64,000 nucleotides of DNA, taken from the NCBI GenBank assembly GCA_000146045.2, contig BK006948.2, positions 832,001-896,000 of the forward strand, given 5' to 3'. How positions within the stretch are numbered: the stretch's first letter is position 1; every line of letters begins with the position of its first letter. The translations under genes and the position numbers were made by a program. The notes under the pieces are model-generated. The model had not been told where the DNA came from. It saw nothing but the letters and a program-made list of their open reading frames with translations, and made no database searches. This document shows positions 2,452-59,432 of the stretch, piece after piece. This stretch comes from TPA_inf: Saccharomyces (taxonomy: Eukaryota).

Positions 2452-4431
2452 TCAAACCATTCTGGCGGAAGCATCGGTGGCCATTTCCGTATACGAATAA
2501 CCGTCTTCATTATCCTTGATAGCTGAGTATAAACTATTGGAAATGGGTTCATTACGATTTTGCGCATGTTGCCCGTCCTCGCGATCAAACGAGGCAGGAA
2601 CGGGCTGCGTATGGGTCCTGCGCAGAGATAGCCTTTCACCTGGTTTTTCTCTAGTCGAAGGGTCTGTTTCCATGGTCCTTAACGTGGTCATCCTTGTTAG
2701 ATTCAATTCACCATCGACAGCATTTACGTCATCTATACCACCTTCGGTCTCAGCCTCCTTTTCCATGGCGGCATAACCAAATTGTGACTTGTGTCTTAAT
2801 TTGCTCCCCCATTTTTCAAAAACCCATGGAATTGGAATCATCACAACGCAAACTAATGCAAATAAAGTGCTTGCCCATTTGATTTTCATCTTTGTGTACA
2901 TTTGGATGGTAAACAATGGGAATACACTACTCATAACGTATCTTAATAGATTATTGGCAGCCAAACAGGATGCCACAGTTAATGGCGGATAGCATGTAGA
3001 GAAGTACATTAAAACGCTGAAAAAAATCAAAATTAAACCAAAACCAAATGGCACACCGGCAGCCACAGGAGCCATCCAGTGGACATCTGATCTAGCAGTC
3101 CAGGCTTGCCAAAACAGGCCGATAGGCAAAGCTACAGAACCAAATTTACAGGCAATTAAAAATTTTTCTGGAACAACGGGTAGCAATTCACCTGTTTCAG
3201 CGTCTCTTGCACCTCTGTAAGGGGTAGTCCTTTTAGAAGTTCTCTCTTTTTCGGTGAGTGGTTGAGTGCCAGCTGGTGGTTTAGGGAAGAGATATTTTCT
3301 GTCGATGTAAAGGTAAAAGAAAGCACCTATCCATAACCCGACACCAATACCAATAAATGGCAAGCCAGATATCCCCATAGACATGTGGTAAACACCACGA
3401 TAAATGACAGCGTATGCTTCGAAAAATCCAAATAAAATGGCGAATATGAAAGCGACATAAACACTGAAAACAAATACAATAGGTTCAACGACAAGCATTT
3501 TTAAAGGCCTTAAGATTGTAATAGTGACAGTGGTTTTTAAAAATTCTTTCTGAGCTTCCCTGCTGAACTTCTTCAAGGCTATATTTCTCTTCTTGGCACG
3601 CTTTCTTAAAATAATACCTTTATGGGTCTCTGGCATGAGCGCAATAAATGGCAAGATTAGACCGCCCGCAATCAATTGGATCCATTCAGACCAACGCCAG
3701 CCTTTGGCTTCAGTAGCAAATCCTGCCATAATAGGAGATAAAACTGGCCCTAAGAATGGAGATAGAACAAAGTATGTCATTGCGACGGAGACCTGGTCCA
3801 CGTCAAAGATATCCAGGATGGTACCTGATCCAACGGATAAGGCGGGGGATGCAAAGACACCTGATAAAAACCTTAGGGGTAGAATTATTCTCATGTGGCC
3901 ATTGGATAACCCAACACCCATGGTGAAAAGCATTGACACAGGTAGGGAAAATAAATAGACAGGCTTACGACCAAACACTTCACTTAATGGAGCGCCGATG
4001 ACAGTCGATAAACCCAGAAGATAGAAAGTTAAACCAGCAAGCGCCAAAGTCTGACTAACGTGATATCTTTCTACCAATTCTGGTACGGAAGAAACATATA
4101 GGGAACTACCCATTGTGACGACCAAACAAAGAAAAGCTGAAGTCATAGTAGTATACCATTTCTTCAAAGAGGACCAATTATGCGGATTGTCTGGGTCATC
4201 GGGCCCGTCCCAATCGAGATCTCTTGGGTCAATTGGCTCGCCCCCTGTCATGTTATTGGAATCTGCATTCGGTTCTGATCTTTTTTCGTCCTCTGTTATT
4301 GACCCTGTCGAAGAAGAAGTCGAATCCAAGTTGCCGCTATTAGTTACATTTTTGTCCAAGGCTTTTGGTACCTGCTGTATGTTTGTTCGAGGATCTGAGT
4401 TAGATTCGGTTTTTGTCAAAGAAGAAGGCAT
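2452..4431 (-). CDS. TPO4: MFS polyamine transporter (DHA1 family), 659 aa
   Basis: The complement of 4429-4431 is ATG. The protein has 12 predicted TM segments, a long hydrophilic N-terminal tail, and matches Tpo4 in length and sequence as I recall it. Confidence 0.8.
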   Translation of the reverse strand: MPSSLTKTESNSDPRTNIQQVPKALDKNVTNSGNLDSTSSSTGSITEDEKRSEPNADSNNMTGGEPIDPRDLDWDGPDDPDNPHNWSSLKKWYTTMTSAFLCLVVTMGSSLYVSSVPELVERYHVSQTLALAGLTFYLLGLSTVIGAPLSEVFGRKPVYLFSLPVSMLFTMGVGLSNGHMRIILPLRFLSGVFASPALSVGSGTILDIFDVDQVSVAMTYFVLSPFLGPVLSPIMAGFATEAKGWRWSEWIQLIAGGLILPFIALMPETHKGIILRKRAKKRNIALKKFSREAQKEFLKTTVTITILRPLKMLVVEPIVFVFSVYVAFIFAILFGFFEAYAVIYRGVYHMSMGISGLPFIGIGVGLWIGAFFYLYIDRKYLFPKPPAGTQPLTEKERTSKRTTPYRGARDAETGELLPVVPEKFLIACKFGSVALPIGLFWQAWTARSDVHWMAPVAAGVPFGFGLILIFFSVLMYFSTCYPPLTVASCLAANNLLRYVMSSVFPLFTIQMYTKMKIKWASTLFALVCVVMIPIPWVFEKWGSKLRHKSQFGYAAMEKEAETEGGIDDVNAVDGELNLTRMTTLRTMETDPSTREKPGERLSLRRTHTQPVPASFDREDGQHAQNRNEPISNSLYSAIKDNEDGYSYTEMATDASARMV

Positions 4432-5019
4432 TAGTAAAACTTAAAATATATGTATACGATGTCTATGCTTCTTTGTGTGTGTATGTGTGTGTATAAGATG
4501 GTATCTTTATTCTGTAATTTTCAGGAAAGTGATGACTAGAAAATCGATGTGTCAGGTACAACAAATTGACAACCTATAACTTTCCATACAGGCGAATATA
4601 TATATACACATAAACACATTCAAGCCTCCGGTACCGTTTGCTCTGACAAGGACAATTAGCATGTAAGCACGAGTGCGGGTATGCAATCATTTCAGTGTTT
4701 CCTTCATTTGGCATAGTGTCGTAACACGGATTTAAGGTGAGCCGTCAGGGGCTTTTAAGCGGAGCCCCTGCAGCTTCATGAAGACGGAACCGCACGGGCC
4801 TATTACCTCGGGGATAGATCAATTATCCGAAGCGGGTCACAACCCGGAAATAATAACCACTATGCCCGACCGTACCGACGTGGCACTATTTTTGGGATCC
4901 GTGGAAGTCGGCCATTAGTGGTAATCGGCGAAAACAAGTTTATTGCAGCTAAAGCACGCCATACGGTTGATATAAACAGCAATTAGGCACTTTTTCTCTT
5001 ATTATTCATATGCCTTATT

Positions 5020-56519: not shown

Positions 56520-56750
56520 TCACCGACTCATTTTGTTAAGCTTGTCTTCAATTGCTTGTATACTGCGTGAAAACTCATCATCATTTTCCTTCATTTGCCT
56601 CTGAACATCCTTTAGTGATTTTTCTATTTCATTTGCCAGGTCAAACACGGTTACAATATTTTCTGTATCTCCCTTTATTGAGTTAGTCTCAGATGTATTG
56701 GCCAAGGGAGCCTGTGGTTCCTCCGAAGCTTCCAGTTTTTCAGTACTCAT
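56520..56750 (-). CDS. BIL1: small 76-aa protein (YOR304C-A; Bud6-interacting)
   Basis: The intact 76-codon ORF MSTEKLEASEEPQAPLANTS... is on the minus strand. The length and locus between ISW2 and RRG7 match my recollection of YOR304C-A. Confidence 0.55.
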   Translation of the reverse strand: MSTEKLEASEEPQAPLANTSETNSIKGDTENIVTVFDLANEIEKSLKDVQRQMKENDDEFSRSIQAIEDKLNKMSR

Positions 56751-56848
56751 TACAGTGCTCCTTCAGAAGATGCAAGTCACATTTACAATATCATTTAGCG
56801 CTAAGGTAAAATGTACCTGTAAGCCAAGCCGCTTCATTGGTTTGCTAG

Positions 56849-56872
56849 TTTTTTTTTTTTTTTTTTTTTTTT
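56849..56872. repeat. about 24-nt poly(dA:dT) tract in the BIL1/RRG7 divergent promoter
   Basis: An uninterrupted run of about 24 T residues. Confidence 0.9.
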
Positions 56873-57021
56873 CAAATTATTTATCGAGGCCAACTGAAAA
56901 GCAAAACAACATGGTTGATCGATACATAGAAATTAACGACCAGGAAGCGAAATACTGCAGCAAATTTCTAAAGCTTCTTCCTATATAAAACACGGTAAAG
57001 AACGGTAAAACATGATAAAAC

Positions 57022-57750
57022 ATGATAAAAAACTATTTGGGACGAAGATGGCTCAATAATCCTGCAATTCAAGCATATGTGAAACAAAATGCTGCTGTCG
57101 CCCATTCTACGGTGTTTCAAGGAAATCTTTATGAATATACGGTGATGAGGGAGTTATCTGAGAAACTACGAATGACAAAGTTGAGAAAAACCGGTGGCGC
57201 CCATGATGGTGGCGTAGACATAAAGGGAAGCTGGCCAGTAGATGATATTTATTGGAAAATTTCATCGTTAATGCCCAATTTGGAAATGGCTAGTAACATA
57301 AAAAGAACGAACTCGCAAAATGGCTTCGTATTGAAACCTTTAAAGTATAGGATAATCGACCATACTTTTGAACCATTGAAAGTACTAGTCCAATGTAAGG
57401 CTTTCACTAAATCAAAATTATCTCCTAGAGAATTCCGTGAGTTAGTAGGAACATTCACCTCACTAGTATCACATAGTCAACGCAACAAAACAGTATGCAT
57501 TATGTGTTCCCCTCATATGTTAACAAAAGATACCTTAAATCTTATCAATAACATCACGCTTCCTCTGATATATTTACGTGTTGAGATGCTGAAAGAGAAG
57601 ACTGACGGGCACTTTGACTTAATCAATTCAGGAAAACTAATTAATTATTACGAGAATTCATACGCCTCTACGTTAATGCAAGATTGCAAGATTTCTGAAT
57701 GGCTGAAGTTGAAGTTGTACAAAAATAGTGACTTTAATTCGGAAAAATAA
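57022..57750 (+). CDS. RRG7: mitochondrial protein required for respiratory growth, with Mrr-like PD-(D/E)xK nuclease-fold motifs, 242 aa
   Basis: The motifs [12 protein letters not shown] and VLVQCKAF resemble the catalytic core of Mrr-type restriction endonucleases. The length matches Rrg7. Confidence 0.65.
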
Positions 57751-57766
57751 AAAAAAAAAAAAAAAC
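57749..57766. repeat. A18 homopolymer beginning inside the RRG7 stop codon (3' UTR)
   Basis: ggaaaaaTAAaaaaaaaaaaaaaaaaaacat. Confidence 0.9.
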
Positions 57767-57866: not shown

Positions 57867-59432
57867 TTAAAATCTGACCCACTTGAAGCCAACACAGTAT
57901 GCTCTCGAAATTATGTAGCAAACAGCGCTTACAAAAGTTGCCAAACCGCAAAAAATAATATAGTGTTGGTAATCGGCCGTTGTCTTGATAGAGATAATGG
58001 CACCTGTTATCGGAATGCCGACTAAAGTACCGAAACCGACAACGAAGTACATTGTAGAGTAACGTTTACCGAACTCTTCCGTTTTAGATATCTGGCCACA
58101 GCAAACAGGAAGTAAGGAGAAAACGCTTCCAGAACAAAATCCATATAGGGCACTAATAACGTACATATTTGTCAAATTGGTACCAAATGGTAACCAACCA
58201 ACAAACATGACGATAAATAGAGTGAGTAGAGTTGCAATTGCGACGTTAAACCTACCGAACTTATCGCTCAAATAGCCAGGAACCCATCTCCCGGGTATGC
58301 CGCAGACATTTATAATCATAATCAAGGTGTAGGCGTCATTAGCAGAAATTCCATGGCTGGTGGCGTATGATCCATAATAAGTAAGAGCTGAATTAATGGA
58401 TAACTCACTAAATACCGTTCCCAGGACACAAAAAAGATATTTCATATCCAGGAAAGCCTTCGCATCAAAACATTGCAGAATATAAACTCTGAGTATGTAT
58501 CTCCAACGTGACTCACCATCTTTGGAATTTTCGATAACATGTGGTAACCTCTCTTTGACTAAAATGATTGACAGAGTTAGCAAAGCCAAATCTAAAAATC
58601 CTAAAGTTCTAATGCCCCAAACAAATCCATAAGTTGGATCAGTGTCTGACTTCATAGAGAAGAAACTACGCAACATAATTGGGAAAACGACGCCACCCAC
58701 ACTACCACCAATAGTGGCCATTGCCAATGCAGTACCACGTCTCTTAAAAAAATAGTGGGCGGGAACACTTACTAGGGGACTCAGTACAATACCATTACCG
58801 AACCCGCAGACAATGGCAAAGGACAGTATGAAGTGCCAATATTTAGTAGAGTTGGCGGTAGCGAACAGACCGGCTACATGAAAAACCGTGCCCACAATCA
58901 TAATTGTCCTAAATCCATTTCTATCAAAGTAAGTACCACTAATGATACATGAGGCAGAGCAAACAAAAAGAAACAAAGAAAACAGCCAACCAATGGTAGA
59001 AACACTTTCACTGGATAATTGATTGTCCTGTAGATGACTTTCTATGACCCCCGTTGAGTTTAATAAACCAAAGCATGCAATTAGACCCAAGAAGCAACCA
59101 AATGTCACAACCCAAGCCTTGAATCCACCCTCCGGGAAGCTTTCAATTTCTTCATTGGAATCTTCTTCTTTGTCACTGTCGTGCGTGCTCGAGGTATTTT
59201 CACCCCAATGTGGTTGGCTTTCAATGTCAGTTCCTTTATTTACTTCCTTCTTGGTATACACCTTTGCCGACACCGACGTTGACGCGTAAGAGGCAGTAGT
59301 CTCTAATGACTCTAAATCATCAGCTTCTGGATCATAATGTATGCTATCCTCATCTAAATCAGGTTGCCGCAGTTGGTTGGTTTGTTCTTCTGGAACTATA
59401 GTGTCTTTAGGCGTTAAACTGTCTGAGCTCAT
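57867..59432 (-). CDS. MCH5: MFS monocarboxylate-transporter-family protein (plasma-membrane riboflavin transporter), 521 aa
   Basis: It has 12 TM helices and an acidic N-terminal tail. Recognised as Mch5. Confidence 0.8.
   Translation of the reverse strand: MSSDSLTPKDTIVPEEQTNQLRQPDLDEDSIHYDPEADDLESLETTASYASTSVSAKVYTKKEVNKGTDIESQPHWGENTSSTHDSDKEEDSNEEIESFPEGGFKAWVVTFGCFLGLIACFGLLNSTGVIESHLQDNQLSSESVSTIGWLFSLFLFVCSASCIISGTYFDRNGFRTIMIVGTVFHVAGLFATANSTKYWHFILSFAIVCGFGNGIVLSPLVSVPAHYFFKRRGTALAMATIGGSVGGVVFPIMLRSFFSMKSDTDPTYGFVWGIRTLGFLDLALLTLSIILVKERLPHVIENSKDGESRWRYILRVYILQCFDAKAFLDMKYLFCVLGTVFSELSINSALTYYGSYATSHGISANDAYTLIMIINVCGIPGRWVPGYLSDKFGRFNVAIATLLTLFIVMFVGWLPFGTNLTNMYVISALYGFCSGSVFSLLPVCCGQISKTEEFGKRYSTMYFVVGFGTLVGIPITGAIISIKTTADYQHYIIFCGLATFVSAVCYIISRAYCVGFKWVRF

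Follow-up and report, generated by a model that had tools for sequence, protein, structure and literature searches.

What would a protein built like a bacterial restriction endonuclease be doing in the mitochondria of a yeast? The question is raised by an open reading frame (ORF) in a 64,000-nucleotide stretch of Saccharomyces DNA (contig BK006948.2, positions 832,001 to 896,000; hereafter the window) that occupies positions 57022..57750 of the + strand, runs from ATG to TAA and encodes a product of 242 amino acids (aa). An original prediction, made from the letters of the DNA, had drawn the ORF with the same coordinates, named it RRG7 and credited it with an Mrr-like restriction-enzyme fold. 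The name is correct: the product scores 243.8 bits with the Pfam family PF10356 "RRG7" (formerly DUF2034), for which the cut-off is 22 (E = 1.1e-72; aa 29-219, profile positions 1-185 of 185), shares 88% identity with S. paradoxus Rrg7p and has a 100% identical counterpart in the database. This nuclear gene, RRG7, is already annotated, and its product almost certainly has an Mrr-type fold with an intact active site.

Fold and active site of the RRG7 product

The two strings upon which the prediction was built are both present, the hairpin string at aa 57-71 and the VQCK-containing string at aa 119-128. Translated in all six frames, the whole window yields a single occurrence of the pattern G..DGG.D with [hydrophobic]Q.K after it; upon shuffling of the residues (n=200) the full pattern arose 0 times and its first half-motif 0.005 times per window.

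Mrr_cat (PF04471) is the sole nuclease family in Pfam that is matched by the RRG7 protein, and at the level of the family the matches are strong: 25 of 25 Saccharomycetaceae orthologues match Mrr_cat at E <= 1 and 80 of 100 diverse RRG7 family members do so at E <= 0.01 (best 2.6e-11), the Pfam scans of the family members having returned no PD-(D/E)XK family besides Mrr_cat, except Mrr_cat_2. Comparison by hhalign of a 100-sequence RRG7 alignment with Mrr of E. coli K-12 (sequence from NC_000913) yielded a probability of 95.2% (E = 2.6e-8), which rose to 96.9% (E = 1.4e-10, 113 columns) with a profile of 120 Mrr relatives, RRG7 aa 34-213 corresponding to Mrr aa 168-284; when the Mrr alignment was reversed, as a control, the probability was 0.4%. 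The two proteins are collinear from α1 to β5 in five blocks, namely the "YE/FE" of α1, the GGxxDGGxD hairpin, the VQxK strand, the glycine of α2 and the "S/T..[FL]T" of β4. Within these blocks GGAHDGGVD and VQCK of RRG7 are aligned with GGTGDGGID and VQAK of Mrr, so that E38 is paired with E172, D62 with D199, D66 with D203, Q124 with Q219 and K126 with K221. The Mrr substitution D203A is known as a catalytically compromised mutant (PMC5435990).

The AlphaFold2 model of RRG7, built on 25 orthologues (mean predicted local distance difference test, pLDDT, 82.4; predicted template modelling score, pTM, 0.84), consists of H30-49, E52-56, E67-71, the insertion 72-118, E119-125, H135-148, E157-163, H169-176 and E182-187 (H, helix; E, strand), and the predicted order α-β-β-β-α-β is that of the PD-(D/E)XK core. 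In the model E38 lies in H30-49, D66 directly precedes E67-71, Q124 falls within E119-125 and K126 stands at the end of this strand. D66 is the "PD" aspartate at the start of β2 and Q124-x-K126 the Mrr-type variant of (D/E)xK; together with the α1 Glu, these are the acidic β2 residue and the β3 x-K that make up the superfamily signature, and all of them are conserved in the family.

An exhaustive HMMER search, run over 1.84 billion representative proteins, brought up 654 relatives at E <= 1e-3, 125 of them at E <= 1e-10. Conservation was read from an aligned set (n=197) made of the listed representatives and the Saccharomycetaceae orthologues, whose named members belong to Saccharomycotina, Pezizomycotina and Basidiomycota. 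D62, G64 and D66 are each present in 197/197 sequences, Q124, C125 and K126 each in 196/197, E38 in all 191 sequences aligned there; conservation reaches at least 97% at R139, E140, G143 and N212 (N212 in 195/196), and position 168 is T or S in 197/197. The mean column identity, calculated on the 100-sequence alignment, is 17%. Among the members examined, P0140 of Dipodascopsis tothii is the single one to carry VVSCK for VQCK; Ser there replaces the conserved Gln, whereas it retains D62, D66 and K126. A further peculiarity is the residue placed between the catalytic Gln and Lys, i.e., Cys125 (57394-57396), which could be structural or redox-sensitive and which is kept in 196/197 sequences, E. 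coli Mrr having Ala instead.

Taken at the level of the sequence, then, a full Mrr-style active site is present, with E38 in α1, D62 and D66 in the β1-β2 hairpin and Q124-x-K126 in β3, and the product is essentially one Mrr-type PD-(D/E)XK domain behind a short, basic and acid-free N-terminus. The fold that had been predicted is supported by both hhalign comparisons and by the Mrr_cat matches; the profile search of the Pfam/HHpred type that had been proposed as a check thus does find a PD-(D/E)XK family, at the family level, and the catalytic residues are indeed conserved across the fungal orthologues in the 197 sequences.

The fold inference itself is not new. Pfam places PF10356 in the PD-(D/E)XK clan. 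Yor305wp was listed as a known PD-(D/E)XK member as early as 2005 (PMC1189080), in a context that also cites a Mrr paper of 2001, and Steczkiewicz et al. in 2012 assigned Mrr_cat, DUF2034 (PF10356) and 1y88 to a single cluster, remarking that "DUF2034 function is unknown" (PMC3424549); the UniRef label of one basidiomycete member reads [quoted passage not shown]. The inference has therefore been known for some two decades, and to make it anew repeats Pfam and three published surveys.

Defence, mitochondria and the putative substrate

The closest known system is the E. coli Mrr itself (EcoKMrr), a type IV methyl-directed restriction endonuclease whose catalytic core is collinear with that of RRG7 and has the same active-site configuration, the GGxxDGGxD hairpin, the VQxK strand and the S/T-x-x-[FL]-T block being common to both. 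However, Mrr belongs to a prokaryotic restriction system whereas RRG7 is a nuclear-encoded mitochondrial protein of fungi, and RRG7 lacks the N-terminal winged-helix DNA-recognition domain, just 28 aa preceding its nuclease domain. It differs further by an insertion of ~47 aa (aa 72-118) between β2 and β3 that E. coli Mrr does not have, by Cys in place of Ala between Q and K, and by an extra C-terminal strand with Asn212. Of the other systems compared, the archaeal Mrr_cat-type protein AF1548 of Archaeoglobus fulgidus (PDB 1y88) shares 9% identity and has neither the insertion nor the C-terminal extension, and the FokI cleavage domain (PDB 2fok/1fok), with its canonical D-D-x-K site and its large recognition domain, shows no detectable sequence relationship to RRG7.

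The Pfam scan of RRG7 matched no family besides RRG7 and Mrr_cat, and thus nothing resembling the recognition domain of a type IV enzyme, and the PADLOC defence-protein hidden Markov models (HMMs) gave no match at E <= 0.1 with RRG7 and three diverse homologues. Thus, of the description of RRG7 as the closest thing to a defence-type domain in the window, the part concerning the fold holds and the part concerning defence does not: RRG7 is not a defence gene, and a restriction role appears implausible for a nuclear gene whose product is a fungal mitochondrial protein.

Rrg7 is mitochondrial according to a green fluorescent protein (GFP) study, as this is cited in PMC2768984, and is entered as "mitochondrial" in Table S2 of PMC7453639. 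An acid-free N-terminus would be compatible with a mitochondrial presequence, and aa 1-37 contain 4 K/R and no acidic residue before E38. The gene was named by Merz and Westermann in 2009 (PMC2768984), who found Δrrg7 to be a class II pet mutant, i.e., one whose respiration is regained both by mating to a rho0 Δmip1 strain and by cytoduction of fresh rho+ mitochondria; the rescue by mating to rho0 Δmip1 means that functional mitochondrial DNA (mtDNA) is still present, and mutants of this class were read by the same authors as having suffered "acquired" damage. Stenger et al. in 2020 (PMC7453639) gave RRG7 a pet score of 1.00, which is maximal, and did not list it with the 89 mutants in which, after cytoduction, no expression of a mitochondrial ARG8m reporter is seen, and Zhang and Singh in 2014 counted the YOR305W deletion among the strains whose mtDNA is completely lost (PMC4149433). 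Other phenotypes reported from screens are an increase of CoQ6 by ~7-fold and hypersensitivity to CTBT. The statement that RRG7 is required for respiration needs qualification in that cytoduction rescues the deletion, which is also absent from the mutants failing in mtDNA expression (PMC2768984, PMC7453639). Neither the replication nor the expression of mtDNA depends acutely on RRG7; loss of the gene causes a reproducible, cytoplasmically inherited respiratory failure, which can end in the loss of mtDNA, and the phenotypic data, taken together, fit a gradual instability of mtDNA.

Two other PD-(D/E)XK proteins of yeast mitochondria, Exo5/Dem1, an ssDNA 5'-exonuclease, and Pet127, which takes part in RNA 5' processing, resemble RRG7 in that their loss leads to mtDNA or respiratory phenotypes (PMC3424549); unlike RRG7, their activities are established, and they belong to other families (PF09810 and PF08634), neither of which was matched in the Pfam scans of RRG7.

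The best explanation of these data, which we put forward with some reserve, is that RRG7 encodes a Mg2+-dependent endonuclease which acts on mtDNA and is needed for its long-term stability. As to the parts of this proposal, the conserved site suggests that the protein is probably a catalytically active nuclease, while mtDNA, the likeliest substrate, is proposed only tentatively. Once imported into the mitochondria, Rrg7 would be a divalent-metal-dependent phosphodiesterase in which the metal would be held by E38 and D66, probably with D62, and the attacking water would be positioned by K126, as in other PD-(D/E)XK enzymes. Since RRG7 has no separate recognition domain, its choice of DNA would more likely depend on structure, damage or a partner, and less on sequence or methylation, possible targets being intermediates of recombination or repair, or aberrant mtDNA molecules. 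Loss of the protein would then lead to a slow, cytoplasmically inherited decay of mtDNA and not to an immediate block of replication or expression. A DNA substrate is weakly supported by the net charge of the protein (+13) and weakly hinted at by the Lys-rich extensions of many homologues, which are of low complexity and not folded domains. As a further weak hint, four homologues carry (K/R)GRP AT-hook-like motifs with basic flanks, each at a different position: P0077 (aa 87), P0119 (aa 128), P0182 (aa 13) and P0197 (aa 272), the four placements being the N-terminal extension, the β2-β3 insertion, the extreme N-terminus and the C-terminal tail. P0165 has over aa 1-260 a long, Lys/Ala/Pro-rich N-terminal tail that resembles histone H1.

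Could the substrate be mitochondrial RNA? An active PD-(D/E)XK nuclease that performs an endonucleolytic step of RNA processing or decay would be indicated by the same fold and active site; precedents of mitochondrial PD-(D/E)XK proteins acting on RNA are offered by Pet127 and by the RAP-domain proteins (PMC3424549), and defects of mitochondrial RNA metabolism in yeast often result in secondary loss of mtDNA (PMC2768984). On the other hand, an essential function in RNA processing would be expected to behave otherwise than that of a gene whose deletion strain respires again after cytoduction and is not found among the 89 ARG8m failures, the nearest relatives, those of the Mrr family, are DNA endonucleases, and the AT-hook-like motifs of some homologues point, if weakly, to AT-rich DNA, so that we regard an RNA substrate as unlikely. 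There are also precedents for a nuclease fold that does not cleave, such as the inactive PD-(D/E)XK domains of RPB5 and Sen15, and Rrg7 might by analogy be a nucleic-acid-binding or scaffold protein; this seems to us quite improbable, the Gln at that site being the normal Mrr configuration (Mrr Q219) and the near-invariance of E38, D62, D66, Q124 and K126 in a family of such low mean column identity being typical of catalytic constraint.

The proposal of an mtDNA-directed endonuclease has nevertheless several points to contend with, some of which bear on the fold itself and might suggest that the likeness of the motifs is coincidental and that RRG7 is not a PD-(D/E)XK protein. The RRG7 protein alone scores 17.9 bits against Mrr_cat, which is below the gathering cut-off of 21 (E = 0.0035, aa 118-152 only). 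A Foldseek search of the model against the PDB gave no significant match, the best being FokI with E = 0.064, and at the level of sequence neither the protein nor two family profiles found a true match in the PDB; the sole match, a guanylate kinase at E = 1.6, was discarded as not being a true relative, and the NCBIfam scan of RRG7 returned only noise. A narrow HMM, made from close relatives of the E. coli Mrr and lacking the depth to be of use, ranked the RRG7 ORF 1st among the 226 ORF segments of the window but with just E = 0.34. Coincidence is excluded for practical purposes; because the single protein stays below the Mrr_cat cut-off while the family-level matches are strong, RRG7 is, on this comparison of profiles, a sister family of Mrr_cat and not a curated member of it. 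Other points concern substrate and activity. The AT-hook-like motifs show a weak enrichment (4 found where 1.17 would be expected; 33 of 1000 shuffles give at least 4), and several of the homologues bearing them are automatic gene calls. Furthermore, since the class II behaviour shows that functional mtDNA was kept in one collection, the Δrrg7 phenotype could be an acquired mitochondrial defect in which DNA is not involved. Finally, the literature that could be searched yielded neither a biochemical study nor a nuclease activity for Rrg7 or a member of its family, or for any mitochondrial Mrr-like nuclease, and the remark in the original prediction that the role of the protein has not been defined biochemically appears to stand.

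Layout of the locus and peculiarities of the homologues

The coordinates of RRG7, of its structural elements and of its neighbours are collected in the table. The neighbouring genes are arranged as they should be around YOR305W, on chromosome XV of S. cerevisiae.

Table. Positions in the window of RRG7, its predicted structural elements and the adjacent features
Feature	Position	Strand	Remarks
RRG7 (YOR305W-type) ORF	57022..57750	+	242 aa; span takes in the stop codon
N-terminal 28 aa before the Pfam domain	57022..57105	+	presumed mitochondrial targeting region; putative presequence
Helix α1, aa 30-49	57109..57168	+	contains E38 (codon 57133-57135; aligns with Mrr E172); from model and alignment
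β1-β2 hairpin GGAHDGGVD, aa 58-66	57193..57219	+	D62 = Mrr D199; D66 = Mrr D203
RRG7-specific β2-β3 insertion, aa 72-118	57235..57375	+	helix, short β-hairpin and helix in the model
Strand β3 VLVQCK, aa 121-126	57382..57399	+	Q124-x-K126 aligns with Mrr Q219, K221; Cys125 invariant
Helix α2, aa 135-148	57424..57465	+	conserved R139, E140, G143; G143 = Mrr G237
Strand β4 and S-P-x-x-L-T motif, aa 157-168	57490..57525	+	collinear with Mrr "ITTSGFT"
C-terminal strand LINYYEN, aa 206-212	57637..57657	+	family-specific; near-invariant N212
76-aa ORF	56520-56750	-	neighbour of RRG7
521-aa major facilitator superfamily (MFS) transporter ORF	57867-59432	-	PF07690; neighbour of RRG7
Divergent intergenic/promoter region	56751..57021	.	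about 270 bp; common to RRG7 and the 76-aa - strand ORF

The intergenic region shared by RRG7 and the 76-aa ORF contains an unbroken T24 tract (56849-56872), a typical poly(dA:dT) promoter element. Immediately at the start of the gene, ACATGATAAA is present twice in tandem, a 10-bp duplication (57010-57029) by which a second ATG arises at 57012; the context of the latter, TAAAACATGATA, is the same as that of the RRG7 start at 57022, but this ATG is out of frame and opens an upstream ORF (uORF) of 15 codons that overlaps the main start (within 57010-57059). The uORF could lower the translation of RRG7 if the 5' end of the mRNA lies upstream of it. At the other end of the gene, the TAA stop falls within a run rich in A, with A17 after it (57748-57765), and a variant present in the database, P0001 (252 aa, 67 member sequences), corresponds to RRG7 having lost 1 nt at the A run with readthrough past the stop; it represents either a variation of homopolymer length between strains or a sequencing error.

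In other fungi the β2-β3 insertion is variable in both length and sequence and often of low complexity. Two long homologues, P0107 and P0116, were considered as fusions with a domain like that of the 76-aa neighbour and were rejected as true fusions, the BLASTP matches (E = 9.8 and 0.11) not being significant. The locus that underlies P0107 belongs to another yeast (GCA_001661425.1, KV453850.1; stretch L002, 3001-4934), in which the RRG7 homologue (3864-4934) is preceded on its own strand by a 96-aa ORF (3001-3291) whose C-terminal half is faintly similar to the 76-aa neighbour, a similarity that is not significant by BLASTP. Since these are two separate ORFs which the NCBI model P0107 (440 aa) joins via a predicted intron of ~600 nt, the fusion is probably an artefact of the gene model; the adjacency of RRG7 and a small ORF may have been kept in this yeast, with a changed orientation.

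Possible bearing on mitochondrial genome maintenance

RRG7 is among the few yeast respiratory genes of maximal score (pet 1.00) to which no function has yet been assigned, and its apparently intact and conserved nuclease site provides a concrete hypothesis that can be tested cheaply, even if it will not surprise the specialist.

A more far-reaching possibility, which we consider rather unlikely as a whole, is that RRG7 is an active descendant of the type IV enzyme Mrr, devoid of the recognition domain and kept in Ascomycota and Basidiomycota as a guardian of mtDNA. Such an Rrg7 would act by cutting AT-rich mtDNA that is aberrant, damaged or branched, so that defective genomes would slowly pile up when the enzyme is missing, which would, if true, explain the "acquired" petite phenotype that is rescued by cytoduction. 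Cys125, placed beside the catalytic Lys, might confer redox sensitivity on it. Irrespective of such an origin, an mtDNA-directed endonuclease would, if this is what RRG7 encodes, represent a new component of mitochondrial genome maintenance in fungi, and it might account for the acquired and cytoplasmically transmissible phenotype of the deletion.
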